This document shows positions 6,407 through 23,662 of a stretch of DNA of 51,841 nucleotides, in pieces; positions within the stretch are counted from its first letter, which is position 1; each line of letters opens with the position of its first letter. This stretch comes from Candidatus Eiseniibacteriota bacterium (GTDB taxonomy: Bacteria; Eisenbacteria; RBG-16-71-46), in NCBI GenBank assembly GCA_036845125.1, contig DAIUEO010000005.1, positions 1 through 51,841 of the forward strand. The letters are read 5' to 3'. The position numbers and the translations under genes are program-made. The notes under the pieces were generated by a model. The model was not told the origin of the DNA. It saw only the letters and a program-made list of their open reading frames with translations, and ran no database searches.

Positions 6407-7360
6407 ATGCGAATCACGTCCGTGTTGTGCGTGTTGCTGGGACTGACCGTGCTCGGCTGCCAGAAGAAACCTGCGGAGCAATCGGGTTCGAAGACCGCCA
6501 CCGGCGCGCCCACTCTGGAAGAGCTGAAGAACACCGAGTACACCGGTTTCGAGGAGGTGTCACGCACCGTCCACCTGAGTGGAGGTGCCTGGGAGGGCGC
6601 GCCCTACGACTCGCGGAGCGAGGTTCGCCCGCACGTCATCTACGTGAAGGATATGAGGCTCGAGGGTGACCTCGACGGCAACGGCTCGCCCGAAGCGGTG
6701 GCGTTCCTGGCATTCGCGTCCGGCGGCTCCGGAGATCTCCTGCATATCGTCGTCCTCGACCGTCGACAGGGTGCCGTGATGCAGCGCGCGAACGCCATCG
6801 TGGGTGACCGCGTGCAGATTCGTGGCGCTCGAATCGAGGGAGCGAACATCGTCCTCGACCTGGTCGAAGCCGCCCCCGGCGATCCCGCCTGCTGCCCGGC
6901 CGAGTTGGTGACCCGCAGGTGGCAGCTCGAAGGCGACTCGCTGGTCGAGCGACCCTCCGGCATACCGCACACACGCCTGAGCCCGGAAGCGACGGATGGT
7001 GTCGACTGGAAGCTGAAGGAGTGGAATCTCGGTGAGCCGGCTCCCGAGGACCCCACGGTGACGCTCATCTATACCGCCGGGCGCTGGTCCGGGAATTCCG
7101 GATGCAATCGCTACGCCGCCTCGGTGTCGTCGGGAGAGAACCCGGGCGACGTCATCGTCGGCCCGTCGTTCGGAACACGCATGGCGTGCGAGCCCACAGC
7201 CGCCGCCATGGAGCGCCGCTTCCTCACCCAGCTCGGCGCGACGAAGCGGATCGGCTTCTACGCCGGCCGGCTCGCGCTGACCTACGCGATGGACGACAGC
7301 CTCGGCACCATGCTGTTCGAGCCGGCGCCCGCCGCCCCGGATACGACCGCAAGGCCGTGA
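6407..7360 (+). CDS. lipoprotein with a C-terminal META (HslJ-like) domain
   Basis: Lipobox MRITSVLCVLLGLTVLGC. META-like block: WKLKEWNLG...TLIYTAGRWSGNSGCNRYAASV...VGPSFGTRMACEP..AAMERRFLTQL...YAGRLALTY. Confidence 0.75.
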   Translation: MRITSVLCVLLGLTVLGCQKKPAEQSGSKTATGAPTLEELKNTEYTGFEEVSRTVHLSGGAWEGAPYDSRSEVRPHVIYVKDMRLEGDLDGNGSPEAVAFLAFASGGSGDLLHIVVLDRRQGAVMQRANAIVGDRVQIRGARIEGANIVLDLVEAAPGDPACCPAELVTRRWQLEGDSLVERPSGIPHTRLSPEATDGVDWKLKEWNLGEPAPEDPTVTLIYTAGRWSGNSGCNRYAASVSSGENPGDVIVGPSFGTRMACEPTAAAMERRFLTQLGATKRIGFYAGRLALTYAMDDSLGTMLFEPAPAAPDTTARP

Positions 7361-8877
7361 ACCCGAAGGTCGTCGAGGCGGCACGCGCCGCGTTTCCCGT
7401 CTCCACGAACGCGATCACGCTCGGGGCGGTGGTGCACGAGGGCGCGTGTCATCCCGAGCCGCTGATTTCCGCGCCGCTCGCGATGATGAACCGCCACGGC
7501 TTGATCGCCGGCGCCACCGGCACCGGCAAGACCCGCACGCTGCAGCTCCTCACCGAGCAGCTCTCCGCGCGCGGCGTTCCGGTGTTCATCTCGGACGTGA
7601 AGGGCGACCTCTCGGGAATCGGGTCGCCGGGGGAGATGGGCGATCGGGTGAAGCAGCGCGCGCAGGAGACCGGCTACGCGTGGAAGCCGTTCGCGGCGCC
7701 CGTCGAGTTCCTGAGCCTGAGCGGCAGGCGCGGCGCCCAGCTGCGCGCGACCGTGTCGTCGTTCGGCCCGCTGCTGCTGTCCAAGGTGCTCGGCCTCAAC
7801 GAGACCCAGACCAGCGTGCTCACGCTCGTGTTCAAGTACTGCGACGACCGCGGGCTCGCGCTGCTCGACTTCCCGGACCTGCGCGCAGTGTTGCAGTACC
7901 TGACCGGCGACGGCGCCGCGGAGCTCAAGGACTATGGCGGCATGTCGAAGCAGACCGTGGGCGTGCTGCTGCGCGAGATGGTGGAGCTCGAGCACCAGGG
8001 CGCCGAGGGTTTCTTCGGCGAGCCCCAGCTCGACCTCGCGGACCTCATGGTGGTCACATCCGAAGGCCGCGGGCTGGTGAGTGCGCTCGAGCTGTCCGAC
8101 GTCCAGGACAAGCCGGCGCTGTCGTCCACGTTCGTGATGTGGCTCCTCGCGCGGCTCTATGCCGAGCTGCCCGAGGTGGGGGATCTCGAGAAACCCAAGC
8201 TCGTGTTCTTCTTCGACGAGGCGCACCTGCTGTTCGACGGCGCCAGCAAGGAATTTCGCGCCGAAGTCGAGAAGATCGTGCGCCTCATTCGTTCCAAGGG
8301 TATTGGCGTGTTCTTCGTGACCCAGAACCCCAAGGACATTCCCGACGAGATCCTCGGCCAGCTCGGGCACCGGGTTCAGCACGCGCTCCGTGCCTTCACG
8401 CCCGATGACGACAAGGCCCTGCGCGCGGCGGCGCGCACGTACCCGAAGACCGAGTTCTACGACGTGGCGGCCACCCTGACCTCGCTCGGGATCGGCGAGG
8501 CGTTCGTCACCGTGCTCACCGAGCGCGGCACGCCCACGCCGCCCTTCGCGACGCGGATCGTGCCGCCGGCCTCGCGCATGGCGCCCATGGAGGAGACCGA
8601 GTTCGCGGCGCGCCTCGCGGCATCGGCGCAGGTTCGGGAGTACGCCACACCGCTCGATCGGGTGAGTGCGCGCGAGATCCTCGCCGGGCGCGAGCCGGCG
8701 GCAGTCGGCCCGGCCGGAGCGCCTGCGACCGCGCCCGCCGCGCCGAGGAGAGGTGCTCAGGAGCCGCCCAGCACCTTCGAGCAGATTCTGAAGTCGCCCA
8801 TGGCAAACACCATCATGCGCGGAGTTATGGGCGCCCTGCTCGGCACCGCCGTGCGCCGGCGCCGCCGCTACTTCTGA
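7357..8877 (+). CDS. HerA-like / DUF853 (YjgR-family) P-loop NTPase
   Basis: ORF 7102..8877. Walker A is GLIAGATGTGKTRTLQ and Walker B-like is KLVFFFDEAHLLF. I prefer GTG 7357, which overlaps the META gene stop (GTGA) and gives about 506 aa, the usual size for this family. The 7102 start would overlap the META gene by 259 nt. Confidence 0.8.
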   Translation: MNPKVVEAARAAFPVSTNAITLGAVVHEGACHPEPLISAPLAMMNRHGLIAGATGTGKTRTLQLLTEQLSARGVPVFISDVKGDLSGIGSPGEMGDRVKQRAQETGYAWKPFAAPVEFLSLSGRRGAQLRATVSSFGPLLLSKVLGLNETQTSVLTLVFKYCDDRGLALLDFPDLRAVLQYLTGDGAAELKDYGGMSKQTVGVLLREMVELEHQGAEGFFGEPQLDLADLMVVTSEGRGLVSALELSDVQDKPALSSTFVMWLLARLYAELPEVGDLEKPKLVFFFDEAHLLFDGASKEFRAEVEKIVRLIRSKGIGVFFVTQNPKDIPDEILGQLGHRVQHALRAFTPDDDKALRAAARTYPKTEFYDVAATLTSLGIGEAFVTVLTERGTPTPPFATRIVPPASRMAPMEETEFAARLAASAQVREYATPLDRVSAREILAGREPAAVGPAGAPATAPAAPRRGAQEPPSTFEQILKSPMANTIMRGVMGALLGTAVRRRRRYF

Positions 8878-11036
8878 TGGCGCGCGACCCCCGGGGCGGT
8901 TCGAAGCCGGCCCGTCCCGGAGGCGCTTCCGCGGCCCGCCCCGCTCCGTGGGCCGGGCTCGAGGTGCCGCCGCTCGTGGTCTTCGCCCTGCTCGCGGTCG
9001 CGATCGTGCTGCTCCACGTTCCCGGGCTGCCGCGCACCTTCTTCGCGGACGACTTCCTGTTTCTCGACCAGGTGCGCTCGCGCACGCTGCTCGAGTCTCT
9101 GCGCGTGGCCGATCCGCTCAGCAACTTCTATCGCCCGGTGAGCCGCCAGATCTATTTCTGGATCATCTCCGCGACCACGAACGAATCGGGCTTCGCGTTC
9201 CACGCCTCGAACCTGTTCTTCTTCGTGGTGCTGGTCGGCCTCTTCTACCTGGTCGCGCGCCGTATGGCCGGCGGTGTCGCGGCCGCGATCGGCACCGCCT
9301 TCCTCGCGCTCCACTACGCCGGCGACGTTCCGGTGCGCTGGGCCTGCGGCAGCCAGGAGCTGCTCTCGGTGGGCGGCGCCCTCGCGGCGCTGTGGCTCCA
9401 TCTCGGCGGACGGCGCTTCCTCGCGGCGGCGTTCCTGGTGGTCGCTGCGCTCTCCAAGGAAATCGTGCTGCTCACGCCGCTGATCGCGGCCATCGCCGAC
9501 CGCCGCCCGGGGGAGAGCCTGTGGCATTCGGCGCGCCGCGCATGGCCGCTCGGAATCGGCGTCGCCGTTTGGGCGGCCGTGTGGCTGCTCGCGCCACACA
9601 CGCGACAGGCCGCCTCGACCGAGGTGGAGCTCCATCCGTGGGGCGCGGTTTCCACCTACGTTCACCTGCTCCAGGTGTTCTTCGGTTTCGAAGCGCGGCA
9701 GGGCGAGCTGTGGCGGCTCCCGCGGGTCGGGCCGCCGCTCGTGCCGCTGGTGCTGGCCGCGGTGGCCGTGTTCTTCGCGCGGGAGTCGCGACGCGCGCGG
9801 GACCCGAAGCCGGCTTCCCCGGCGAGCGACACGACGCACACCGCGGCCCGCGAGGCTCTGCCGTTCGGGCGCAGCGGCCAATCGCGTGCGCGGCACGCGA
9901 TCGTCACCGGCATCCTGTGGGCGCTGCTCGCCACGGTGCCAATCATCGCGGTCGCGGTGCTGTGGAGCGCCTACTACTACCTGTACGCGATGTGCGGCGC
10001 GGCGCTCGCGCTCGGCGCGGCGTTGAGCCGGGTTCCCCGCGGCTGGGCGGTGGCGGCGCTGGTCCCGCTCGCCTGGGGCTCGGCGAGCGCGCGGCACCTA
10101 GACGAGTTCACCTCCGCGCGGAACCCGTGGAGTGCGATGTCCCACATCAACCGCTTCTACATCGAGCGCGCGACCCGGGTCTGCGAGGGGTACCTCGCGG
10201 ACCTGCGCGCGCTGCACCCCGACTTCCCGCAACGCAGCACGCTGTTCTTCGCCGGGCTCAAGCCCAACGTGGCGTTCCAGGTGGCGGACGGGCCGCTCAT
10301 CCGCTGGGCCTATCGCGACAGCAGCCTGCGCTCCTACTACCTGACCAACTTCTCGCGCGACAAGGCGACCCGCGGCCCCAACTATTACTTCGTGAGCCAG
10401 AGCGACTCGATCTCCGAGATGGCGGAAGGATCCGACCGAATGCTGCGAATCGCGTTCAGCATGCTGGTGAGCGACTGGCCGCCCGGCGCGCATGACGCGC
10501 TGTCACTCGAGATCGAGCGTGACCCGTCGAGCGATCGCGCCCGCTACTGGTCGGCATGGACCAGCTACGCGCTCGATCGGCCGGACGAGGGGCGGCAATC
10601 GCTCGCCAGCGCCGGATACGGACTCGAGAGTGCGCCCGCATCCGGGCAGCGCGCGGCCTACGACGCGCTCGCCCGCGGGGACACGCTCGGCGCGATGGCG
10701 CTCGCGCGCGAGGAGGTGAAGCGCCACGCGCTCGACGCGGCAGCGCACGCGCTGCTCGCCGACCTCATGCTGATCCGCGACCCGGACGATCCCGACGCCG
10801 CCATCGAGGCCCTGGCCGCACGCGTGCTCGCGCCCCTGGACCCGATCGTGTGGCGGCGCTGGGCCATGGTGCAGGCGCGGCGCGATCGCTACCTCGAAGC
10901 ACTGAAGTCGTTCGATCGCTACTTCGAGCTGGCCGGCGCGATGGGGGAGAACGACGCCGAAGCGAAGCGCTGGGTGGAAGCGATGCGTCGCGTGCTGCCG
11001 GGCGGCGCCGCCAAGCCGGAAGCCTTGCGCGACTAG
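8877..11036 (+). CDS. polytopic GT-C-like membrane protein with a C-terminal TPR-like soluble domain
   Basis: 719 aa. TM1 is followed by an acidic loop (RTFFADDFLFLDQV), as in GT-C glycosyltransferases. It has at least 8 further TM helices and a helical TPR-like tail (ARYWSAWTSYALDRPDEGRQSL...LEALKSFDRYFELAG). The ATG overlaps the upstream stop by 1 nt (TGATG). Confidence 0.6.
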   Translation: MARDPRGGSKPARPGGASAARPAPWAGLEVPPLVVFALLAVAIVLLHVPGLPRTFFADDFLFLDQVRSRTLLESLRVADPLSNFYRPVSRQIYFWIISATTNESGFAFHASNLFFFVVLVGLFYLVARRMAGGVAAAIGTAFLALHYAGDVPVRWACGSQELLSVGGALAALWLHLGGRRFLAAAFLVVAALSKEIVLLTPLIAAIADRRPGESLWHSARRAWPLGIGVAVWAAVWLLAPHTRQAASTEVELHPWGAVSTYVHLLQVFFGFEARQGELWRLPRVGPPLVPLVLAAVAVFFARESRRARDPKPASPASDTTHTAAREALPFGRSGQSRARHAIVTGILWALLATVPIIAVAVLWSAYYYLYAMCGAALALGAALSRVPRGWAVAALVPLAWGSASARHLDEFTSARNPWSAMSHINRFYIERATRVCEGYLADLRALHPDFPQRSTLFFAGLKPNVAFQVADGPLIRWAYRDSSLRSYYLTNFSRDKATRGPNYYFVSQSDSISEMAEGSDRMLRIAFSMLVSDWPPGAHDALSLEIERDPSSDRARYWSAWTSYALDRPDEGRQSLASAGYGLESAPASGQRAAYDALARGDTLGAMALAREEVKRHALDAAAHALLADLMLIRDPDDPDAAIEALAARVLAPLDPIVWRRWAMVQARRDRYLEALKSFDRYFELAGAMGENDAEAKRWVEAMRRVLPGGAAKPEALRD

Positions 11037-13613: not shown

Positions 13614-15800
13614 ATGCCGCCCGCGCCGCGCCCGTGGCTTCTCGCCTCAGCGTTGATGTTGCTTCCCGTTGTCTCCTTCGCGGCCGATTCCATTGATGAG
13701 GCCATTCGTGAGGCGCTGGGCACCGCGGATCGTCTGCCGCTCCGGACCGGCATCCTTCACGACCGCGTCCTCGACCTCACGGGACTCTCGCGCTTCGACG
13801 GCACGCCGTCCGCCCCGCGCGGGAACCTCGCGCTGTTCCGGCAGGCCGCCTACGAGCTGAGCCGCGCCTCGCGCGGCGCCCTGCGCCTCCCGGAGGCTCA
13901 AACCTTCGCGTCGCGGGCGGCGGGCAGCGCCGTGATCCCGATCCGCGTGCTCGACGTGGCGTACGAGCGCGTGCGTCCCGAAGCCGGCGCGGCGATCGGC
14001 CGGGGCGAGGTTCCGCCCGATGCACTCGAGGAGGCGCGCGCCTTCCTCGCCGCGCCGGCGATCGAGCACACCTATCGCGGCGCACGCACGTCGTTTGTGA
14101 TCGAGCCCGACGATGTGAGCGGCAACGATGCCCTGCCGGTGACGCGAATCGAGATCGATCCTGGTGACGGCGGCGGTTTCCGAAGCGCCGGTTTCGGCGA
14201 GCCGGTCGAGGCGCGTTACGGCGCGACCGGGGAAGTGATCGTTCGCGTCCGCGTCACGCGCGGTGGTGTCGCCCGCGAGGCGTCCTTCGCCTTCGACGTC
14301 CGTGCACTGGCCGCGCCACTTCCGGACGACACCCTGTTCGTCACCGCTTCCGAAGCATGGCTCGGCCAGTTCGGCACCGGCCGCGCGTACGTGCGCTACG
14401 GGCAGGGGCACACCAGCGTGGTGAACCCGGTGGTGGTCATCGAAGGCTTCGATCTCGACAACAGCATGAGCTGGGACGAGCTCTACGCGCTGCTCAACCA
14501 GGAAGGGCTCGCCGACACGATCCAGGCGCGCGGCTACGACGCGATCGTGCTCGACTTCGACGAAGCCACGAATCCCATCGAGGAAAACGGGTTGCTCACC
14601 GCCGAGCTGATCCGCCAGGTGCGCGCGATGCTCGCGCCCGGCGCGCGGATGTCGGTCGTGGGCGCCAGCATGGGCGGCCTCTGCTCGCGCTACGCACTCG
14701 CGCACCTCGAGCAGCTGGGCGAGCCGCTGCCGACCAAGACCTGGATCTCGTTCGACACGCCCCACCTCGGCGCCAACATCCCGCTCGGCATCCAGTACTG
14801 GATGCAGTTCTTCGCGTCGCAGTCGGCGGATGCCGCGTTCCTGCTCTCGCGGCTCGACACGCCCGCCGCGCGCGAGATGCTGGTCTACCACTACACGACA
14901 CCCGCGAGTTCATCGCCGAGCGCTGATCCGCAGCGCCCCGCGTTCCTCGCGAACCTGGCGGCCGCGGGCGACTGGCCCACGCGCATTCGAAGGGTGGCGG
15001 TCGCGAATGGGAGCGGCACCGGAACCGGCCAGGGCTTCGGACTCGGCGCGCAGATCATCCGCTGGGAGTACAACAACCTTCTCGTCACGATCCTCGGAAA
15101 CATCTGGGCGCTGCCGGACAACACTCCGACCACGACGATCTTCAACGGCCGCATCCGCATCCTGTTCGTTTCGGACACCCAGAAGTCAGTGCCCGTGAGC
15201 GGCACGCTTCCCTATGACGGCGCACCCGGCGGCCGGCGCGCCACCATGACCCAGATGGACACCACCGCTGCACCCTACGGCGACATCGTGGCACTCCATC
15301 CCGCGCACTGCTTCATTCCGACCCCCAGCGCGATCGCGCTCAGTACCGTAGGCCTCTCGACGCCCCTGATCGGCAACCCCTCGGTTCCGTCCGGCACTCC
15401 ATTCGCGGCCGTGTATCTCCCGACCGCCAACGAGGACCACGTCGCGATCACCCCCGGCAACGCGGCGTTCGTTCTGGGCGAAATCGAGCAGCCGGTGGTC
15501 GCGGCGCCGGACCCGATGCCGACTCCCGGTGTAGCCCTGCGGTCGTGGCCCCAGCCATCCCGCGGCGCGTCGACCATCGCGTTCTCGCTCCCCACCGAGG
15601 GCCGCGTGAAGCTGAGCGTCGTGGATGTCGCGGGACGAACCGTCCAGGTCCTGCAGGACGGCGTACTCACGGCAGGAGAGCACCGCGTTCCGTGGAGTGG
15701 AGTGGGGGAGTCCGGGCGCCAAATGGCGGCCGGGATCTACTTCATCACCCTCGAAACCGGCGCGTTCACGCAATCCGTGCGGGCCGCCGTCCTCAAGTGA
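13614..15800 (+). CDS. secreted alpha/beta-hydrolase (lipase/PGAP1-like) with a FlgD-Ig/T9SS-type C-terminal domain
   Basis: 728 aa with signal peptide MPPAPRPWLLASALMLLPVVSFA. The nucleophile elbow is VVGASMGGL. The C-terminal ~85 aa are ...STIAFSLPTEGRVKLSVVDVAGRTVQVL..GEHRVPWSG..ESGRQMAAGIYFITLETG....AAVLK. Confidence 0.7.
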   Translation: MPPAPRPWLLASALMLLPVVSFAADSIDEAIREALGTADRLPLRTGILHDRVLDLTGLSRFDGTPSAPRGNLALFRQAAYELSRASRGALRLPEAQTFASRAAGSAVIPIRVLDVAYERVRPEAGAAIGRGEVPPDALEEARAFLAAPAIEHTYRGARTSFVIEPDDVSGNDALPVTRIEIDPGDGGGFRSAGFGEPVEARYGATGEVIVRVRVTRGGVAREASFAFDVRALAAPLPDDTLFVTASEAWLGQFGTGRAYVRYGQGHTSVVNPVVVIEGFDLDNSMSWDELYALLNQEGLADTIQARGYDAIVLDFDEATNPIEENGLLTAELIRQVRAMLAPGARMSVVGASMGGLCSRYALAHLEQLGEPLPTKTWISFDTPHLGANIPLGIQYWMQFFASQSADAAFLLSRLDTPAAREMLVYHYTTPASSSPSADPQRPAFLANLAAAGDWPTRIRRVAVANGSGTGTGQGFGLGAQIIRWEYNNLLVTILGNIWALPDNTPTTTIFNGRIRILFVSDTQKSVPVSGTLPYDGAPGGRRATMTQMDTTAAPYGDIVALHPAHCFIPTPSAIALSTVGLSTPLIGNPSVPSGTPFAAVYLPTANEDHVAITPGNAAFVLGEIEQPVVAAPDPMPTPGVALRSWPQPSRGASTIAFSLPTEGRVKLSVVDVAGRTVQVLQDGVLTAGEHRVPWSGVGESGRQMAAGIYFITLETGAFTQSVRAAVLK

Positions 15801-15876: not shown

Positions 15877-15952
15877 GGGGCTGTAGCTCAGTTGGGAGAG
15901 CGCTTGACTGGCAGTCAAGAGGTCAACGGTTCGATCCCGTTCAGCTCCACCA
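15877..15952 (+). tRNA. tRNA-Ala (anticodon GGC), with CCA encoded
   Basis: Hand-folded cloverleaf: acceptor GGGGCTG/CAGCTCC, D arm GCTC-AGTTGGGA-GAGC, anticodon arm CTTGA-CTGGCAG-TCAAG, variable loop AGGTC, T arm AACGG-TTCGATC-CCGTT, discriminator A, then CCA. The G3:U70 pair, the alanine identity element, is present. Confidence 0.95.
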
Positions 15953-16062
15953 TTCTTCCTCACATGGCGGTCTCCAAGGCGGAAGCAGTCGGACGGGTGC
16001 AAGACGCCCCGCCGCCCAGCCGTCGCGTTCACCCACAACGCTCCTTCGATCGGAGCGGGTGA

Positions 16063-17949
16063 ATGTCCCGAAGCCCTGATCGAGGGCTTGTTCCTGGAGC
16101 ACCCCGATGGTTTGAGCTCCCCGCGCCCGGACGCAACGAACCGTGTCGATGCGAGAGCGGCAGGAAGATGAAGCACTGCTGCAGAAGCTTCTACGAGTTC
16201 GCACGGGAACCTGTAGTCAAGAACGCGGGCATGTTTGTGACTCATGAATTGCTTTGGCCCGGACTACGTTCCAACTACGACGTCATCGCGCAGCGTTGCC
16301 GCCTCTTGCCAGGTCCTTGGCTCATTCGGTTCCTGTCAATCCTGCAGTGGCTTTTGGAAGGAGAATTCTCGAGCAATCGCCCGGGGAACGTGGGCTTGAG
16401 CTTCCTCCGGAATTTCGCGGAGCCCATTGTGGCAAAGAAAGTGGAGGCCTGGCTATCAAGCGGTCGAGCACAACGGGTGTTTCATCGCTGCACAATCCCA
16501 GCAATGATGCAGGTACGGATGCTGGCGGGTGAGCAGGAAGGCAGCACAATGGAGCCATCCGCAGAGACCTTCGAAGAGGTTGCGAGACTCCTCTTGATGG
16601 TCAACGACCTGCTCGAAGGCGACTACGAGGAAGCGAAAGGCGCTAGCACAACATCGCAGGGCGTCGACCATGCTCTGGCAGCTTCGATGTTCCGCAATCA
16701 CTTCTATAGTCACCGTGCAAACTGGGGCCCAGCGATGGGGCGCCACTGGGGTCTGCTGACCTTTGGCGGAAGGGCAGTGCATGGCAAGTTCCCGAAGGAG
16801 GTTTTTGATGTGCAGAGGGAACACCAGGCCCTTCTTGGATTCGCCCCAACCGACATGCTCACGATCATGTTTGCCCTGGTGGCGTACTACTCGAGCTTCA
16901 CACCAGAGCAACTCAACGAGAGGCCAGACAGGTTTCTCGTGGGCGTTGATCTACTGAACGCGCTCGGTGGACCCGAAATGAGAGCACAAACTCAGGCGAT
17001 TTTCGCGGCATGTTCGGCGGACTGGGATGCGCATGTGGCGGCAATGCGAGCAATTGCTGTGGGCCCGCGAAAGAACGTGCAGCAGTTCTTCAGCGTCTAC
17101 AACACGCCGCTCATGCGCGAAGCGGAAGTCTATTTTCCCCTCGATTTTGAGTTCCTCCGGAGCCAGACGACCGAAGGATGGTTCTGGAGCCTTGTTCGAG
17201 TGCTGAGGCAGAATAATCGAGGCCCTGACATCGGCCGACTCAATGCTTCCTTTGGCAGAGCATTCGAATGGTTCTGCTCTGAATTGACTCGCCCGCTGCG
17301 CGACGGGGACGTCCGCGTGTGGTCCGACTGGGATGGAGAGATCCAGGCTCAGCAGGGGCAGCAGGTTCCGGACATACTCCTGGTGGATGGTTCCGTTCTG
17401 TTTGTGATTGAGGTCACTAGTAGCGCAGTGCCGCCATCGGCTGCTGTGAGCTGCGACCCGGCGGTCCTGGAGGGTGCGATTAGCAGAGCCTGGTTCGGAC
17501 CTTCTCGCAAGCTAGAACAGCTGCAGAATGCCCATGAAGGCGTGTTGGCCGAACGGGTGACCGCTGGTGGCCTGAACCTAGCAAACGTGAAGAGGGTGGT
17601 GCCGCTGCTGGTAACGCTAAGGTACTTGCCTCGACATCTCGGACTATGGCACTGGTACCGAGACATCATGCGCAAGAACGCTCTCAGGCCGGAGTTTATC
17701 GAGGCAGTACGAATCCTCGACAGCGAAGATTGGGAAGAGCTGTGTTTCGGAGCGATCGAAGGGCACGGAGTTGCAGCCCAATTCGATGCTTGGCAGGGGT
17801 CCGATTGGGCATGGCAGTCCTTCGAAGACTGGAGAGCCGCAACCCTCGGCAACCGCCCATTGCACCCACTACTTCGCAAGTTCTTGGACGATCTTTTCGA
17901 GAGGATGCCACCGCAGTTCGATCCGAAGCGGGCAGGTGCCTCCGTGTAG
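16063..17949 (+). CDS. SEC-C motif protein with a C-terminal PD-(D/E)xK-like (restriction-endonuclease-fold-like) core; otherwise unknown
   Basis: 628 aa. The N-terminal GRNEPCRCESGRKMKHCC (16129-16182) matches the SEC-C metal-binding motif. The C-terminal VPDILLVDGSVLFVIEVTS (17365-17421) looks like a PD...ExK nuclease core with Thr in the Lys position. G+C is low relative to the flanks. Confidence 0.6.
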   Translation: MSRSPDRGLVPGAPRWFELPAPGRNEPCRCESGRKMKHCCRSFYEFAREPVVKNAGMFVTHELLWPGLRSNYDVIAQRCRLLPGPWLIRFLSILQWLLEGEFSSNRPGNVGLSFLRNFAEPIVAKKVEAWLSSGRAQRVFHRCTIPAMMQVRMLAGEQEGSTMEPSAETFEEVARLLLMVNDLLEGDYEEAKGASTTSQGVDHALAASMFRNHFYSHRANWGPAMGRHWGLLTFGGRAVHGKFPKEVFDVQREHQALLGFAPTDMLTIMFALVAYYSSFTPEQLNERPDRFLVGVDLLNALGGPEMRAQTQAIFAACSADWDAHVAAMRAIAVGPRKNVQQFFSVYNTPLMREAEVYFPLDFEFLRSQTTEGWFWSLVRVLRQNNRGPDIGRLNASFGRAFEWFCSELTRPLRDGDVRVWSDWDGEIQAQQGQQVPDILLVDGSVLFVIEVTSSAVPPSAAVSCDPAVLEGAISRAWFGPSRKLEQLQNAHEGVLAERVTAGGLNLANVKRVVPLLVTLRYLPRHLGLWHWYRDIMRKNALRPEFIEAVRILDSEDWEELCFGAIEGHGVAAQFDAWQGSDWAWQSFEDWRAATLGNRPLHPLLRKFLDDLFERMPPQFDPKRAGASV

Positions 17950-17959
17950 CACGCTGCTA

Positions 17960-18150
17960 GCGACCGAAGTGACGGCCTCACCTCCAACGTGATCCGGCCG
18001 GTCTCATGTTCGAGCTAGCTAGACCTCACTTGATTCGTTCACAGGCTCGGGAGCGCTAGGGTGCAGCCTGAGGGGCAGCCGTGGCGACTCCCACCAGCGT
18101 CGCGGCTCTCCATCAGCACGACCACGTCCGCGATCTCGTCGGTGAGGACA
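17960..18150 (-). pseudogene. decayed 3' fragment of a paralogue of the FG-GAP/CTD gene at 20896-22656
   Basis: The reverse strand of 18095-18150 reads LTDEIADVVVLMESRD. This corresponds to LTDEIADVIILMENRD, the reverse strand of about 21205-21255, with about 44 of 50 nt identical by eye. Further shared blocks follow (GGAGTCG; CCCGAGCC-GTGA-CGAATC), with indels and in-frame stops. Homology stops abruptly at the HNH gene 3' end. Confidence 0.55.
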
Positions 18151-18184
18151 GAAGCACGAACAAGGCATGAAGGACGACGTACAG

Positions 18185-19099
18185 CTAATTAGGCGCTGTC
18201 ATTGTCCCCCCCGCTGAATCGCTCGGTTCGAGGATAGCGAACAGCTCGTTCGGTTCAGCGAGATGTTGCTGGTAGATCCATCTGGGGCCGGAGAGAGCGA
18301 TACGCTTAAAATGGACGCGGAAGCAGATTTGGCGGAACAGACGCACTTGCACCCTGGTGTGAGGGGCATTGTCCTCGAGTACTAGCCCGTGGATGGGTGT
18401 GACCGCGCCGGCCTGAAGGCGCTCAACGGCGGCGGCCGTATCTTCCCAGTTGCCTCCGCGAAGCATACGCCGGTAGGGTTCTAGAGCGTCCGAATAGATC
18501 GCACTTCCAATGCAGCACGCCAAGAACTCGTAGGCCGTCTTTAGCGCCCATGTATCAGGCGCGCCCAATCCGGTTTCAAGGGCGGGACGGATTCCCTCCG
18601 TATGCCACTCGATGATTTCGATTCCTGGTGCCAACTCGATCCGCTCGTTCGCCGGGGCTCCGTCGAACTTCTCTAGGGCTGCAGGAATCTCCAGGTCACG
18701 ACCTTGCTTCCGGAGCATCTGGACGATGGCGTCACGAGCTTCGGGGGTGGCCAGCATCAGGGAGCCGTCACCCGGCCGAAGGGGATGGGGCCGGAAAGCG
18801 CCTGCTTTGACCGATCCCTGGAACTCGCCGTATCCGGACTTGCCGACGTAGGCGGCCCCATCCTCGATAGTCTCGACGAGTTCCGGCAGCGTCTCCTTCA
18901 GTTGAAGGGCGGCTCTGCGAACATGTGGGTCGGACTTCACGCGGGAGTCGATCGTCGTTCCTAGGGTGCTATTGCAGGGCTTGCAGAGGAAGCTTGACCT
19001 GAGCCTTCCACCCACCAGAGCGGGAATGATGTGTTCTACCGTGAGTTCCCGTTCTTCAAGACACACGATGCACCGAGGATCTGTCCAAGGAACGACCAT
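18185..19099 (-). CDS. HNH endonuclease-domain protein with an uncharacterised ~240-aa C-terminal domain
   Basis: ORF 18185..19132. The ATG at 19099 is preceded by AGGAGG (complement of 19104-19109). The N-terminal HNH module is CIVCLEERELTVEHIIPALVGGRLRSSFLCKPCNSTLG (CxxC...EH...CxxCN). G+C is low. Confidence 0.75.
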   Translation of the reverse strand: MVVPWTDPRCIVCLEERELTVEHIIPALVGGRLRSSFLCKPCNSTLGTTIDSRVKSDPHVRRAALQLKETLPELVETIEDGAAYVGKSGYGEFQGSVKAGAFRPHPLRPGDGSLMLATPEARDAIVQMLRKQGRDLEIPAALEKFDGAPANERIELAPGIEIIEWHTEGIRPALETGLGAPDTWALKTAYEFLACCIGSAIYSDALEPYRRMLRGGNWEDTAAAVERLQAGAVTPIHGLVLEDNAPHTRVQVRLFRQICFRVHFKRIALSGPRWIYQQHLAEPNELFAILEPSDSAGGTMTAPN

Positions 19100-19233
19100 G
19101 CGACCTCCTAGCAAACCGAGGCAGGCTACCACGCATGAGGCTGCGGTGCAGACAGTTGCGGCGGATGCCGATGACTAGTCGTGGTGCAGGCGCCGCGGCT
19201 ACATGGCCGCCCCGGAGGCATTTTGGAGGGTTG

Positions 19234-19926
19234 ATGCTGATGAGAGTTGCGTTTGCTGGTGCGCTAATCCTGGTTCACGCGGTAGCGCAGGCTGGGTCAC
19301 TCTGCGTTCCGCCCACGGTCGAGAGGAACAGCCCTCACCAGTTTCTCGTCAGCATGGCGAATGCACTCGTCTACGCGAAGGAGGGTCTCGATCGCGTTAC
19401 GGAAGCGGACACCGACCTGTATTCGCTTGTCGTGGTGCTTCGACTCCAACAGTCGAGCTACAGGTGCGCCGCGAGCCAGGTAATGCCCTACGAGGCAAGT
19501 TCCGACTCGATCATCAGTGCAAGCGCCCAGGCCACTGCGGGAATCTTTGACCGCCTTTCACAAGTGGACGATGAGTTCGTGTCTCAGGCTAAGGTGCTCC
19601 TCGAACCGGACGGTTCGTTTTCAGCGGGAGAGATGGCAGAACGACAAGCGCAGACCCAAGCAGACCTTGAACAAACGTGGAAAGTTCTGATTCATGCAGT
19701 GGCCCTCGGCACGTTCGCTGTCGTGCGGGCCGATCCCATCACAGGCAAGATGGCGCGACTCTCGCTCACCGCAACGGAACGAGACGAAATCCTCGCAATC
19801 CTCCGATCAGGGTTCGGGCGAGGCGTTGCCGATGGGATACAGGCAGGTCAGCCTGCACTGCATGCTTCTGCGGCTGCCCTCTACCAGTTTCTCAGCAACC
19901 CGAAGTGGCAGTTACGATCGCGCTGA
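19234..19926 (+). CDS. hypothetical secreted helical protein
   Basis: ORF 19135..19926. The ATG at 19234 follows GGAGG and gives signal peptide MLMRVAFAGALILVHAVAQA. I recognise no family. Confidence 0.5.
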   Translation: MLMRVAFAGALILVHAVAQAGSLCVPPTVERNSPHQFLVSMANALVYAKEGLDRVTEADTDLYSLVVVLRLQQSSYRCAASQVMPYEASSDSIISASAQATAGIFDRLSQVDDEFVSQAKVLLEPDGSFSAGEMAERQAQTQADLEQTWKVLIHAVALGTFAVVRADPITGKMARLSLTATERDEILAILRSGFGRGVADGIQAGQPALHASAAALYQFLSNPKWQLRSR

Positions 19927-19954
19927 CCGAAGTCCTTGAGCGGGAGGGTGCGGA

Positions 19955-20257
19955 ATGGCGAACGGTGGGGCACTCGGCGATCGCCTTGTCGACATCGCCA
20001 TCTTCACACTGATGGGTGGGTTGGGTTTGGGGTGGGCCTTACTGCTCGGAACCATGGGTGTCCAAGCTCTGTTCCCGCAGTCAGCAGCTCGCGCTGAGCG
20101 CGTTCTTCAGGCCACGTCGAAATGGCTCAACCCCACTCTGAAGTACGCCCTATGGGTAGTTCTTGCTCTTGTCGCCGTTCGCTTCGTCGCGAGTTTGCTC
20201 GGATGGGCTCCTCCAGTGCCGCCGGGAGACCCGGGCGAGCTTGAGCGCGGGTCGTGA
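19955..20257 (+). CDS. small membrane protein with two predicted TM helices
   Basis: 100 aa. The hydrophobic segments are IAIFTLMGGLGLGWALLLGTMGV and YALWVVLALVAVRFVASLLGW. It starts 28 nt after the preceding gene. Confidence 0.45.
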   Translation: MANGGALGDRLVDIAIFTLMGGLGLGWALLLGTMGVQALFPQSAARAERVLQATSKWLNPTLKYALWVVLALVAVRFVASLLGWAPPVPPGDPGELERGS

Positions 20258-20310
20258 GCAGTTCGATCCCTTCAACGAGGTGTTCTGTCTCTGGCCTGTC
20301 CCGCCTCTAG

Positions 20311-20853
20311 GGAAAGGGGGGCATCCTGGCAAGGCAACGGCTGAAAGATCCACGCGACTTCCGTGATCGTGTTCAAGAGACGGTCCAATGGTTCAGCACG
20401 ATCTACCTTGGCGGGATACCGCCGATCATCACGAACGACTCCGCGTTTCTGGCGTTCATTTGCGTCGTCACTGCAACCGAGGCGCTCTCTGGCTACCGCT
20501 ACGGCGGTGGAAACCTAAACCACCGCTTCGTGAAGTTCGTACGGGAGTATTTCCCTGATGCATACACGCCTCATGCGGAAGACCTCTATGCTCTGCGCAA
20601 GAAGCTGGTGCACGCTTTTTCAACGGGACCGTTCCAGCTAATCCATCACAGGAGCGACATGCACCTGCGCGTGACGACTCGAGGTCAGGTGATCTTGAAT
20701 GCCGAGGACATGTACGGCGCTCTGCTGTCGGCCGCGCAGAAGTACTTCGCAGAGCTAAACGCCAACGATGATCTCAAGCGGAAACTTGTCGAACGCCTGG
20801 ACGCAGAAGGAGGTGGCAGCATCAGCGTCGGGCGAATTGCGGTAATCCGATGA
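20311..20853 (+). CDS. HEPN-like (Rx4H) hypothetical protein; the frame is open from 20311 but the first canonical start is GTG 20530, so it may be a pseudogene, frameshifted, or use a non-canonical start
   Basis: The track ORF is 20530..20853. The same frame is open back to the stop at 20308-20310 and reads protein-like sequence there (LKDPRDFRDRVQETVQWFSTIYLGGIPPIITNDSAFLAFICVVTATEALSGYRYGG...). The motif DLYALRKKLVHAF has R at 20596-20598 and H at 20611-20613. Confidence 0.45.
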   Translation, partial: GKGGILARQRLKDPRDFRDRVQETVQWFSTIYLGGIPPIITNDSAFLAFICVVTATEALSGYRYGGGNLNHRFVKFVREYFPDAYTPHAEDLYALRKKLVHAFSTGPFQLIHHRSDMHLRVTTRGQVILNAEDMYGALLSAAQKYFAELNANDDLKRKLVERLDAEGGGSISVGRIAVIR

Positions 20854-20895
20854 TCCGCAATCCCTGCGAGAGGGTGTCCCGCGCCGGCCCAATGA

Positions 20896-22656
20896 TCAGT
20901 GCAGCAGCACCATGCGATCGGATCGCGTGCGCCCGTCCGACGTGACCGTATAGAAGTACACGCCGGCGGGGAGGAGTCGACCGCTCCGGTCGCGACCGTC
21001 GAAGCGGTGTGAGTGCCATCCCGGTCCGAGACCCGTCTGGTCAACTCCGTTGACCTTCCGGCCCGACGCGTCGTAGACGGTGATGCGGACGTCTCCGGCT
21101 TGTGGGAGGCCGAAACGGATGAGCGTGCCCGATTCGCTCACGGGCTCGGGGGCGTTGGGGCGTAGCTCGAGGGCGGCGGGGACCGGTGTTTCGACTCCGG
21201 AAGTCGCGTCGCGGTTCTCCATCAGGATGATCACGTCGGCGATTTCGTCGGTGAGGACGAGGTCGAGATCGCGGTCGTTGTCGATGTCGAGCGGGATCGC
21301 GCACGAGGGGTTGGACGGGGCGATGATGTCCTGGTCGAACGTGAAGACGCCGGCGCCGTTGTTGGTGTAGATCCGCCAGAATCCGCCGCCGAAGGACGAC
21401 AGCACGATGTCGAGGTCGTGGTCGCCGTCGAGATCGCCGACATCCGCCGACGGGGTGTGCGCGCCGACCGCGACGGTCGTGACCGGACTGAAGGTGCCGG
21501 TGCCGGTATTGAGCAGCACGCCGCCGTTGAACCCGGTGCTGTTGGCGGTCACGGCATCGAGTCGGCCGTCGCCGTTCAGATCGCCGAGCGCCACGCCCCA
21601 CGGGAATCCGCCGGCCGATTGAGCGGGCCCCGCCGCTGTGAACGTGCCGTTCCCGTTGCCGAGCAGGGTCTGAACCTGGCCGCCGATGCCGCCGGTCACG
21701 AGGTCGGCGATGCCGTCGAGGTTCATGTCGCCGACCGCGAGGCCCCACTCGCCGCCGACGCCGCTGTTGAAGAAGCTCGGGGCACCGAACACCCCGCTGC
21801 CGTTGTTGATGAGCAGCGAGAGATTGTCGCTGCCCTGGTTCACGTTGACGATGTCCATGTCGGCGTCGCCGTCGACGTCGATCGGCACGATGCCGTGCGG
21901 CCAGGACCCCACCGGGATGTTCGTGATCGGGCCGAAGGTGCCGTCGCCGTTGCCCATCAGGATCCAGACATCGTCGGTGGAGGTGGCGCCGATGCAGAGG
22001 TCGCTGTTGCCGTCGTTGTCGAAGTCGGCGGGCTCGTTGGGGCTCGCTTCGTCGCCGATCGCCTGCGGGGTGAGCATGGTGCCGTAGTTGCCGGTTCCGT
22101 TCGCGAGGTTCAGGAACACCCGCACGTCGGCGCTCACCTCGTTCACGGTGGTGAGGTCGCAGTATCCATCGCCGTTGAGGTCGCCGGCCGAGGCTCCGTA
22201 GATCCGGGTCTGAACGTTGTCGATACGGTTCGAGATCACGTTCAGTTCGTCGAACTGGCGCGTCGCGGGCTGGGTCTCGGCCAGGAACTGGAAGAAGTAA
22301 CCGGCCGGCCTCAGGGGGATGTTGTCCGCGCCCCGTACGTCGTGCGACAGGTTGATGCTCACGATCTCGCCGGCCGAAAACGGCCGGTGCCGGACGAACG
22401 TCGCGGTCCGATTGCCGTTGCTGAACTCGAACGTCCCGGAGACGTTTCCGCTCCACCGCCCGAAGACCCGGAAGCTCGCCGGTGTGACGGAGGAAGTTAG
22501 CAGCGGCCGGTCGAACGTGACCGAGACGAGGCTCGAGACGCTCGCCATGCTATTGCGCGCCGGGCTGGTGCCGATGGCCGCGAGCTGTGCCATGGCGGGA
22601 CCGGCGAGGGCCGCGGTGGCGGCGGCGAGGAATCCGGCAATACGGGCGAGCGACAT
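20896..22656 (-). CDS. secreted FG-GAP/VCBS-repeat (integrin-alpha-like propeller) protein with an SbsA-Ig-like N-domain and a FlgD-Ig/T9SS-type CTD
   Basis: ORF 20896..22902. The ATG at 22656 follows GGGAGG and gives signal peptide MSLARIAGFLAAATAALAGPAMA. There are seven DxNGDGxxD-type repeats (DLNGDGYCDL, DFDNDGNSDL, DVDGDADMDI, DMNLDGIADL, DLNGDGRLDA, DLDGDHDLDI, DIDNDRDLDL). The CTD is ...IRFGLPQAGDVRITVYDASGRKV...GVYFYTVTSDG...MVLLH. Confidence 0.8.
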   Translation of the reverse strand: MSLARIAGFLAAATAALAGPAMAQLAAIGTSPARNSMASVSSLVSVTFDRPLLTSSVTPASFRVFGRWSGNVSGTFEFSNGNRTATFVRHRPFSAGEIVSINLSHDVRGADNIPLRPAGYFFQFLAETQPATRQFDELNVISNRIDNVQTRIYGASAGDLNGDGYCDLTTVNEVSADVRVFLNLANGTGNYGTMLTPQAIGDEASPNEPADFDNDGNSDLCIGATSTDDVWILMGNGDGTFGPITNIPVGSWPHGIVPIDVDGDADMDIVNVNQGSDNLSLLINNGSGVFGAPSFFNSGVGGEWGLAVGDMNLDGIADLVTGGIGGQVQTLLGNGNGTFTAAGPAQSAGGFPWGVALGDLNGDGRLDAVTANSTGFNGGVLLNTGTGTFSPVTTVAVGAHTPSADVGDLDGDHDLDIVLSSFGGGFWRIYTNNGAGVFTFDQDIIAPSNPSCAIPLDIDNDRDLDLVLTDEIADVIILMENRDATSGVETPVPAALELRPNAPEPVSESGTLIRFGLPQAGDVRITVYDASGRKVNGVDQTGLGPGWHSHRFDGRDRSGRLLPAGVYFYTVTSDGRTRSDRMVLLH

Positions 22657-22945
22657 TGAGCACCTCCCGAGGTTCGAGCTCCGGCGACCCCGCGGCCTGG
22701 TGTCCGCCCGCACGATGGCGACCGGCGTCGAGGCTAGGACGGGTTGGTCCGCAGGGCCAGTCGAAAAGTGGCCAGGTTCAGTTCCGCTGGCGATCTGTTC
22801 AGTATCGCCAGCAATTACCCGCTCCAGCGCGTTGGCGCCTCGACATTGGGCCAGTGTCGACAGGTTGATCCCACATCGTCGGGCCGCTAGGGTTTCGCGC
22901 ACGAACCCATTCTAGATTCCGATCCGCGCTCATAAGGAGAAATCG

Positions 22946-23662
22946 ATGCGGCTACACATCACATCACTCCGCATGCTCGTCGTCATGGTTCCGCTGATCC
23001 TCGTGGTCGGCTGCACCAAGGGCCAGAAGACCGAGCCCGGAGCCGCCGTCACCCAGCCGGCCGACGGTGCTCTGCCGCCTCCTCCCGGGCCCAACACGGT
23101 GGTCGCGTTCACGTGGTTCGAACAGGGCAGCACGGTCCCGGCGGAATGGGCGAAGGCGCGTGACGCGATGAAGGGCGTGGCGGGGTTCCGCTACTGGGCG
23201 GTGTTCACCGCTCTGGACGAGCGGCAGTCGAACGCGATGGTGGTCTCGATCTGGGACGATTCGAGCGCGGCGAAAGGCGGCCTGCAGGCGGCCGCAGCCC
23301 AGGTCCCGGCGGGCGGATGGGCGAAGACCGGACTTTTCCGCCGGGCCGCCGCCGACGGGAAGCTGGGGGACGAGGTGCTCAGCTCGGTGGTGGTGGTGAT
23401 TCCGATCACGTCCCAGGTGGACAGCGCGCGGGCGGTGACGGATTTCATTGTCGCGAACGGCTTCATGAGGACCCAGCCCGGCTACCTGGCGTCGTCGCTG
23501 TTCAAGTGCGTGGCGGGCGATCCCGGCTACGGCTACCTGATCGCCGGACGGTGGAAGAGCCGCGAGAACCTGCAGCAGGTGGCCGCGCTCCCGGCGTTCC
23601 AGGAAATGCAGACGAAGCTCGCGATCGCGGGCCAGCCGACCACGTACCAGCAGCAGAAGTAG
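22946..23662 (+). CDS. lipoprotein with two ABM-like (antibiotic-biosynthesis-monooxygenase fold) domains
   Basis: AAGGAG RBS at 22933-22938 and lipobox LILVVGC. There are two ~95-aa units (VVAFTWFEQG...MVVSIWDDSSA and VVVVIPITSQ...YLIAGRWKSRENL) with the ABM-like strand pattern. Confidence 0.5.
   Translation: MRLHITSLRMLVVMVPLILVVGCTKGQKTEPGAAVTQPADGALPPPPGPNTVVAFTWFEQGSTVPAEWAKARDAMKGVAGFRYWAVFTALDERQSNAMVVSIWDDSSAAKGGLQAAAAQVPAGGWAKTGLFRRAAADGKLGDEVLSSVVVVIPITSQVDSARAVTDFIVANGFMRTQPGYLASSLFKCVAGDPGYGYLIAGRWKSRENLQQVAALPAFQEMQTKLAIAGQPTTYQQQK

Follow-up and report, generated by a model that had tools for sequence, protein, structure and literature searches.

A low-GC islet beside a tRNA-Ala gene in Candidatus Eiseniibacteriota: probably an accretion of solitary nuclease-type genes, including a PD-(D/E)xK family of new architecture

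Two single-gene antiphage proteins offer the nearest described points of comparison for the locus analyzed here. Upx is a single-protein PD-(D/E)xK anti-phage nuclease (PDB 9wuf; PMC13099982, PMC13601566) of about 1270 amino acids (aa), organized into NTD, MD and CTD domains and containing two nuclease domains (PMC13099982), and it senses the ATPase of the phage terminase (PMC13601566). Rugutis is a lactococcal single-gene protein in which an N-terminal SEC-C motif sits on an otherwise novel fold and the terminase ATPase domain serves as the trigger (PMC11381338, PMC13064643). We analyzed a low-GC islet at positions 15953-20895 of a 51,841-nucleotide (nt) stretch of DNA from a Candidatus Eiseniibacteriota bacterium (contig DAIUEO010000005.1 of assembly GCA_036845125.1), which we refer to as the window. 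A reading made from the letters alone (hereafter the sequence-only reading) had listed five open reading frames (ORFs) in this interval and proposed that they form one undescribed defense-type module. All five ORFs are present (Table 1): they encode a 628-aa protein with a SEC-C motif and a PD-(D/E)xK core, an HNH endonuclease, two orphan proteins (ORF3 and ORF4) and a small helical protein (ORF5). Our analysis indicates that the islet is probably a horizontally acquired accretion of independently mobile single-gene cassettes, lodged between the tRNA-Ala gene and a gene for an FG-GAP protein, and not one multi-gene system.

Table 1. Features of the islet and its borders, in coordinates of the window.
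Feature	Position	Strand	Description
tRNA-Ala(GGC)	15877-15952	+	Left border of the low-GC block; ARAGORN; Rfam tRNA 68.2 bits
628-aa protein	16063-17949	+	SEC-C knuckle, all-alpha region ~50-386, PD-(D/E)xK core ~387-560, C-terminal helices
SEC-C motif RNEPCRCESGRKMKHCCR	16132-16185	+	Residues 24-41; translation checked
PD-(D/E)xK catalytic strands PDILLVDGSVLFVIEVTSS	17368-17424	+	D437, E450 and T452 in the Lys place; translation checked
Frameshifted FG-GAP/FlgD_ig-type relic, 118 nt	18032-18149	-	In the 235-nt convergent spacer between the 628-aa and HNH genes
304-aa stand-alone HNH_5 endonuclease	18185-19099	-	Pfam HNH_5 43.8 bits, cut-off 27.5
HNH (His-Me finger) motif CxxC...EH...GG...CxxCN	18935-19072	-	Pfam match region and alignment; translation checked
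ORF3, orphan 230-aa protein	19234-19926	+	Sec-type signal peptide MLMRVAFAGALILVHAVAQA followed by GS, read from the sequence
ORF4, orphan 100-aa protein	19955-20257	+	Two hydrophobic segments
ORF5, 174-aa helical protein	20329-20853	+	Open frame 20311-20853; extent from homologs and AlphaFold2 model
FG-GAP/FlgD_ig secreted protein, host-type	20896-22902	-	Right border; Pfam FG-GAP_3 1.5e-41, FlgD_ig; GC3 (G+C at third codon positions) 0.867

The central question is whether the genes of the islet travel together. We compared about 14 independent loci that contain a full-length homolog of one of the three genes with detectable families (seven for the HNH gene, three for the 628-aa family and four for ORF5). 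Thirteen of these loci were compared as DNA, and the place of P0002, the closest relative of the 628-aa protein, was read from its gene table only. A tblastn search of the 13 DNA loci, with the five islet proteins and every retrieved 628-aa or ORF5 family member as queries, revealed no second family at any non-self locus, and the P0002 gene table lists no HNH_5 gene. Additionally, an all-against-all BLAST comparison of the neighbors at five loci identified no conserved partner of the HNH gene. The recurrent co-localization expected of a multi-gene system is therefore absent from the loci sampled. Because no two of the three families share any sampled locus, and each is solitary in mobile contexts, we read the islet as something other than one module.

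The neighborhoods themselves are rich in mobile and defense genes. In the 628-aa family, P0002 is found with a D5_N primase, AbiEi/AbiEii and an E2/ThiF/JAB/patatin protein; P0098 (locus L032) has a large serine recombinase upstream and a cyclic-oligonucleotide-based antiphage signaling system (CBASS) set downstream, comprising HORMA, a TRIP13-like AAA protein, a Cap17-like protein and an exonuclease; and P0246 (L033) occurs with a terminase and a ParB-methyltransferase. In all three of these contexts the homolog thus lies next to recombinases, CBASS, AbiE or phage genes, and L032 is a compact defense island on an integrative element. The methyltransferase of L033 is of the phage ParB type and lies about 2 kb from the homolog, and none is adjacent in the window or in the other two contexts. 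For the HNH family, the neighbors include RadC, RelA_SpoT, AAA_25 and an integrase (L013), RadC, TIR and an rve transposase (L016) and a Peptidase_M78/HTH protein (L015). In a Neptuniibacter metagenome-assembled genome (L017), the HNH homolog belongs to a two-gene insert amid metabolic genes, and two full-length relatives lie on IMG/VR contigs where the neighbors have no Pfam domains. Homologs of ORF5 occur with HicA, Phd/ParE and a DEAD/MZB helicase (L034, 1945-3954, and L035), and with a transposase, a small terminase and a 765-aa Ser/Thr kinase encoded 93 nt upstream of the homolog (L036, 4611-7510). Taxonomically, the homologs are scattered among Methylomirabilales, Eiseniibacteriota, Thorarchaeota and Neptuniibacter. 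Two further features of these loci were recorded in passing. At L032 (6145-17893), a 115-aa gene lies between the serine recombinase and P0098, 20 nt upstream of the latter, and the CBASS-type cluster includes an RNase_T-like gene; L036 and L037 each carry a 47-aa ORF overlapping the ORF5 homolog's 3' end.

These contexts bear directly on the possibility that the five genes constitute one undescribed defense system, in which two DNases, an RNase and a membrane/secreted sensor pair would work together. Homologs of each family occur singly and with different neighbors each time, and no pair of families co-occurs in the loci that we sampled. ORF3, ORF4 and ORF5 run in one direction, 28 and 71 nt apart, but the 628-aa and HNH genes converge on each other, and a relic of a host gene parts the 628-aa gene from the other four. 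Tight packing, a uniform GC3 of 0.64-0.67 and a nuclease-rich content would all suit a single system, as would the fact that no named system matches. Indeed, scanning the five proteins against PADLOC-DB v2 gave matches of 15-17 bits between the SEC-C motif and the E2 and PDC-S12 models and a chance-level DpdD stretch, but no match to a system model beyond these, in agreement with the sequence-only reading, which had recognized no known system. However, ORF3 and ORF4 have no detectable relatives beyond this population (judged from 90% clusters and, for ORF3, also from IMG/VR and PLSDB). Taking both sides into account, we consider a single five-gene system very unlikely.

The spacer between the 628-aa and HNH genes offers a second line of evidence. 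The relic that it contains is 74% identical (E 2e-17) to positions 21131-21258 within the intact FG-GAP gene at the right border, the 3' region of which is its closest relative in the window, and the indels that separate the two are not multiples of three. Read in two frames, the relic yields VLTDEIADVVVLMESRDA and APEPVNES, where the intact neighbor has VLTDEIADVIILMENRDA and APEPVSES. Since this remnant of a host-type gene is located between the 628-aa and HNH genes, the islet appears to be composite, with foreign DNA having replaced both sides of a former host paralog. Judged from the sequence, its history would most simply involve at least two insertion, deletion or replacement events, in the course of which the host paralog was destroyed. 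The proposal of one defense-type module is therefore unsupported on two counts: the families never co-occur in the roughly 14 loci, which the sequence-only reading had itself named as an observation that would refute it, and the relic points to an islet assembled piecemeal.

A foreign origin for the islet is supported by its composition. In 1-kb windows, the G+C content (GC) is 0.58-0.61 over ~16000-21000 compared to 0.66-0.72 on either side, and the islet as a whole has a GC of 0.595 against ~0.68 for the remainder of the window. Its tetranucleotide usage lies at an L1 distance of 0.376 from the rest of the window, while non-overlapping 5-kb windows give 0.12-0.22. After normalization for GC, the tetranucleotide-usage correlation is 0.76 for the islet and 0.81-0.96 for other windows. 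GC3 ranges from 0.636 to 0.669 in the five islet ORFs and from 0.833 to 0.895 in five flanking genes. By these measures 15953-20895 is the top compositional outlier in the 51.8-kb window, and the block joins deviant composition to a position on the 3' side of a tRNA gene, the two properties by which we recognize an islet here. The drop in GC that had been noticed 3' of tRNA-Ala(GGC) is thus borne out by GC, GC3 and tetranucleotide measures alike.

It could be argued that the genes are native and lineage-specific, and that their lower GC stems from expression level or amino-acid content rather than from transfer. Such an account would fit the observations that the population contigs are all identical, that no empty site was found and that another low-GC patch, at 38-40 kb, lies inside one native-looking ORF. 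It is hard to reconcile with a GC3 about 0.2 below that of every flanking gene, with a tetranucleotide usage that deviates even after GC normalization and with homologs that reside in unrelated lineages and in mobile contexts. We regard native origin as highly improbable, and horizontal acquisition remains our preferred reading.

We next consider each protein individually. The public gene calls are truncated or mis-started for three of the five genes. For the 628-aa gene they give products of 481, 476 and 593 aa, with starts that come too late and lose or split the SEC-C segment (16063-16504). We prefer the ATG at 16063 because homologs support it, the closer members of the family opening with the same SEC-C segment; the coordinates of the sequence-only reading are accordingly better than the public ones. 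The CxC...CC of the motif occupies residues 28-40, and close family members share the N-terminal consensus RNxxCxCxSGxKxKxCC. In the 628-aa protein itself the Pfam SEC-C match is sub-threshold (13.1 bits), but 14 of 70 family members score at E <= 0.01, the best at 3.9e-10, and the segment matches YchJ and SecA peptides in the PDB.

The family to which the protein belongs is large and anonymous. In a word-indexed search of 5.8 billion proteins, P0002 was the sole relative, with 43% identity in an alignment over residues 50-620. Exhaustive searching of 1.84 billion representatives with a profile, by comparison, recovered 388 members at E <= 1e-3, mostly of 560-660 aa and matched over their full length, none of which bears a name. 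These representatives (at 50% identity) apparently all derive from uncultured environmental organisms. The body of the 628-aa protein corresponds to no family in Pfam, NCBIfam, PHROGs or PADLOC. Searches by tblastn recovered no member from GenBank phages or PLSDB plasmids, two further family members having been run against the plasmids only; a scan of IMG/VR returned two alignments too divergent to serve as queries, and then no match.

The evidence for a nuclease fold comes from conservation, profile comparison and structure prediction. In an alignment of 70 family sequences, the only residues invariant throughout are P349, D437 and E450, and position 402, on the first core helix, is Glu in 56. 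The canonical Lys site of the PD-(D/E)xK triad, position 452, is Thr in 49 of the 70, Lys in 10 and Ser in 6, and the 628-aa protein lacks the catalytic Lys, having T452. On the following helix, K483 is invariant in the 13 closest members and may stand in for the missing catalytic Lys. An AlphaFold2 (AF2) model built on the 70-sequence alignment is confident (predicted local distance difference test score (pLDDT) 92.9, predicted template modeling score (pTM) 0.92) and shows an all-alpha region followed by an alpha-beta-beta-beta-alpha-beta core, in the order H387-414, E417-421, E427-429, E438-442, E445-452, helices and E511-518. Within the core, strand 2 starts with an acidic residue and strand 3 contains a D/E. 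Consistent with this, a match at E 3.1e-4 links the family profile to the Can2 nuclease domain (7bdv), with GxxFE...D...IExT aligned to GGWFE...D...IECK, and individual family members match Pfam NERD (2 of 70), DUF234 and DUF4143.

Comparison of the model with known structures led to the same superfamily. A Foldseek search against the PDB returned weak E-values and almost only PD-(D/E)xK proteins. The top fold match was Upx (9wuf), with probability 0.95, E 2.6e-3 and a template modeling (TM) score of 0.23 over 609 aligned columns. Nt.BspD6I matched at E 4e-3 to 4e-2 with a full-length TM score of ~0.15, a value so low that probably only its nuclease domain superposes on the model. The small subunit of R.BspD6I reached a probability of 0.97 and a target-normalized TM score (TMt) of 0.47, Hjc resolvases were also matched, and BFVD contained partial matches only, to NERD, VRR-NUC, Hjc and restriction endonucleases. 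With profile, fold and the invariant D437 and E450 in agreement, we uphold the assignment of the 628-aa protein, described by the sequence-only reading as a SEC-C protein with a PD-(D/E)xK-like core, to the PD-(D/E)xK superfamily on the basis of significant similarity, with its Lys replaced.

The HNH gene had likewise been recognized, and its product scores above the Pfam gathering threshold for HNH_5, with the catalytic His and Asn and the Cys4 zinc site in place. HNH_5 is an uncharacterized group in a systematic classification of His-Me finger proteins (PMC5714182). We found ~48 homolog clusters, most of them full-length, in which H23, C39, C42, N43 and a C-terminal RVHF motif are invariant; the first CxxC of the finger is kept by most family members, the window protein included. 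The remaining ~240 aa form a conserved C-terminal domain, which closes with VQVRLF...RVHF and has no detected relative in Pfam or the PDB. Searched by tblastn, the family is absent from GenBank phages and PLSDB plasmids.

ORF5 is a real protein whose start is unusual. Its frame opens with GGA directly after a TAG and offers no ATG, GTG or TTG before the GTG at 20530, that is, within its first 73 codons, and the public calls are reduced to 107 or 64 aa. The 45 homolog clusters, however, are mostly of ~170-180 aa and cover 87-97% of the frame, and the initiator Met of the closest homolog, P0051 (87% identity), aligns with the CTG at 20329, five bases past GGGAAAGGGGGG. This pattern suggests either that the rare CTG is used or that a canonical start was recently lost. 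An ORF at 20311-20853 had been proposed from the letters; the homologs support a protein of ~175 aa there, but place its first residue at 20329 rather than at 20311. Across 41 sequences, R90-x4-H95 (RKKLVH, 20596-20613, translation checked), H106-H107 and LNA(E/D), which reads LNAED in the window, are invariant, and the AF2 model is helical with one beta-hairpin (pLDDT 90.9).

An Rx4-6H motif of the kind that marks HEPN proteins is thus present in ORF5, and the earlier label of a HEPN-like Rx4H protein is right as to the motif, but the assignment to HEPN finds no significant profile or fold match. Pfam returned nothing for ORF5 itself at E <= 10, HEPN_Swt1 and HEPN_Apea matched 3 of the 41 family members at E ~0.2 and a profile search of PDB sequences yielded nothing. 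Foldseek found no PDB match at E < 1; sacsin HEPN ranked second at E 2.0, and it and the helical C-terminal domain of ANT(3'')(9), which we take to be HEPN-like, were both among the top four matches (E 2-3, non-significant). Searches of IMG/VR, GenBank phages and PLSDB plasmids gave no relative of ORF5.

The two remaining proteins, the secreted ORF3 and ORF4 with its two transmembrane segments, are without an assignable role. For ORF3, Pfam, NCBIfam, PHROGs and PADLOC offer no matching family and IMG/VR and PLSDB no relative, and its 90% cluster contains this population only. ORF4 matches no family in Pfam, NCBIfam, PHROGs or PADLOC apart from the chance-level DpdD stretch in PADLOC, and its cluster is a singleton.

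Given the tRNA gene and the foreign composition, the islet might also be what is left of a decayed integrative element or prophage, with nucleases that serve the element in homing, recombination, packaging or addiction and not the defense of the host. The homologs adjoin recombinases, integrases, primases and terminases, the HNH family appears on two IMG/VR contigs, and the host-gene relic and the lost canonical start of ORF5 would be signs of decay. However, the islet retains no integrase, att repeat or structural phage gene. Scans with Pfam, NCBIfam, PHROGs and PADLOC detected no integrase, transposase, methyltransferase or ATPase domain in the islet proteins, as the sequence-only reading had noted, and the intergenic gaps of 110, 235, 134, 28, 71 and 42 nt are too short to conceal a mobility gene. 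The 628-aa and ORF5 families are missing from the IMG/VR, GenBank phage and PLSDB collections and the HNH family from the latter two, while the same homolog contexts are also rich in bona fide defense and toxin-antitoxin genes. Additionally, serving an element and serving in defense can both hold for cargo genes. We therefore judge a decayed element to be an unlikely, if credible, origin for the islet, and continue to favor an accretion of single-gene cassettes.

The surroundings of the islet yielded little that would reveal how it arrived. A direct repeat of the tRNA 3' end was sought in 15961-23000, where the best tRNA-like match, inside the FG-GAP gene, is about as good as in shuffled sequence (p ~0.06). 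The 17-mer GTGAGCAGTTCGATCCC at 20254-20270 was considered as a copy of the tRNA T-arm, and hence as an att repeat, and was rejected: its score is below that of the best match, and comparison with shuffled controls gives it no significance. By Pfam, the products of the flanking genes are secreted FG-GAP, alpha/beta-hydrolase and Ig-like proteins whose C-terminal domains are of the FlgD_ig type. Relatives of the 728-aa flanking protein are 29-64% identical (best 41-64%) and are found without a nearby tRNA and without synteny. A variant of this protein with at least 90% identity, P0256, lies on a separate JGI contig of 43,007 nt and is the best candidate for an empty-site comparison of the tRNA-Ala locus. 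The same sequence as in the window occurs in at least 10 soil-metagenome contigs from JGI, ENA, Logan and NCBI assemblies. Contigs from independent assemblies end at 15878-15895 in the tRNA (L005, L009 and L010) and at 18121-18127 in the relic (L011 and L012), and the coincidence of these ends with the two junctions hints at unresolved strain heterogeneity exactly there.

Other features of the window are listed here for completeness. A FlgD_ig/Por_Secre_tail-like C-terminal domain of ~90 aa is common to many flanking secreted proteins (13614-15800, 20896-22902 and L015/L018-L031), and this domain alone explains most of the weak cross-matches in the locus scans. A gene within 7357-11036 encodes a HerA-like C-terminal (PF05872, DUF853-type) NTPase (E 1e-176, with weak PADLOC matches to mad8 and HerA) and abuts a 719-aa gene without a recognizable domain, the stop at 8877 coinciding with the next start; the two were looked at as a possible defense pair. 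A second low-GC patch (38000-40000, GC 0.60) was examined as a possible island and dismissed as intragenic variation, as it falls within a single 1604-aa ORF (35745-40559, minus strand) with Peptidase_C11 and lamin-tail domains. Apart from the tRNA, no Rfam family was detected, nor were any promoter or terminator consensus sites or meaningful tandem repeats.

Several observations weigh against our reading of the islet as acquired nuclease-type cassettes and have to be set beside it. No att-type repeat was found to flank the islet by local alignment against shuffled controls, and a scan of genome and metagenome contigs with the 728-aa flanking gene recovered no empty-site relative. The islet is 100% identical across all of the population contigs, and no strain polymorphism was seen within it among ten of them. 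The uniform GC3 is as compatible with one donor or one transfer as with several. The sample of about 14 contexts is modest. As for the proteins, Thr in the Lys place means that nuclease activity of the 628-aa protein is not assured. Membership of ORF5 in HEPN is unproven: the protein resembles none of the HEPN families significantly, and in the model its Rx4H lies at the end of a helix, not at the start of one. Finally, a defense function for the islet genes is inferred, and no PADLOC model was matched beyond the SEC-C motif.

In the mechanism that we consider likely, the 628-aa protein, the HNH endonuclease and ORF5 would each act alone, as nuclease-type effectors carried by mobile elements for defense or addiction. 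In the 628-aa protein, the helical domain and SEC-C knuckle would have foreign DNA or a phage protein as their target, and its recognition would gate Mg-dependent DNA cleavage by the PD-(D/E)xK domain. As neither the window nor two of the homolog contexts contains an adjacent cognate methyltransferase, a modification-dependent or trigger-activated nuclease is favored over a classical restriction-modification (R-M) enzyme. ORF5, if it is a HEPN protein, would be an RNase-type toxin, and it may be poorly expressed or silenced because of its CTG start codon.

By analogy with described proteins, the 628-aa family could be a new single-protein anti-phage sensor-nuclease, a half-size functional analog of Upx in which the helical domain and zinc knuckle would sense a phage component, perhaps terminase, and unleash a Lys-less PD-(D/E)xT nuclease. 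We advance this idea tentatively, as a plausible reading that is nonetheless less likely than not. If it is true, the family would be a compact addition to the Upx-like class of sensor-nucleases and, after Rugutis, a second case of an N-terminal SEC-C knuckle in immunity.

The larger consequence concerns how such islets are approached. What looked like a five-gene system becomes ordinary island biology, in which solitary cargo genes gather at a tRNA-flanked hotspot, and there is no reason to clone the block as a unit. The useful remainder is a well-defined, unnamed family in which a SEC-C knuckle and a new helical domain are joined to a PD-(D/E)xK core that has Thr for Lys. The new parts are this PD-(D/E)xK family of new architecture, an HNH_5 protein with an uncharacterized C-terminal domain and a possible HEPN-like protein.

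Two of these parts have partial counterparts among known systems. ORF5 shares with HEPN toxins (AbiD/F, Swt1-like and Apea-like) an R-x4-H motif in a small all-helical protein, and its homologs adjoin toxin-antitoxin pairs; it differs from them in its additional invariant HH and LNAED motifs and its beta-hairpin. Among PD-(D/E)xK nuclease domains of the Can2, Card1 and NERD type, the 628-aa family shares the motif block GxxFE...D...E-x-(K/T) with that of Can2. The 628-aa protein has no CARF domain, however, and the similarity extends over ~65 residues, the remaining architecture being unrelated. Type IIS enzymes such as FokI and Nt.BspD6I resemble it in overall plan, with ~600 aa, an N-terminal helical recognition region and then a C-terminal PD-(D/E)xK cleavage domain. 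The 628-aa protein departs from that type in its extra SEC-C motif, in a catalytic Lys that is not conserved and in the absence of an adjacent methyltransferase in the window.

The likeness of the 628-aa protein to Rugutis and Upx is best regarded as analogy rather than demonstrated homology. Rugutis is a single gene carried on mobile DNA, and it shares with the 628-aa protein an N-terminal SEC-C motif; the body of Rugutis is a confidently predicted domain without a PDB homolog. At 359 aa, compared to 628 aa, and with no reported nuclease domain, Rugutis is likened here by description only. In the case of Upx, neither the family profile run against PDB sequences nor the PADLOC matches showed any sequence similarity to the 628-aa protein, and PADLOC-DB presumably includes a Upx model. 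Upx keeps the canonical D...ExK (D1161, E1176 and K1178), whereas the 628-aa protein has Thr in the Lys place, is half the size, has one nuclease core in its model and carries an N-terminal SEC-C motif, and so does not reproduce the architecture of Upx. Nevertheless, both are stand-alone proteins that couple a large non-catalytic region to a divergent PD-(D/E)xK domain, and Upx and the relatives of the 628-aa protein are alike in residing in defense-rich, mobile contexts.

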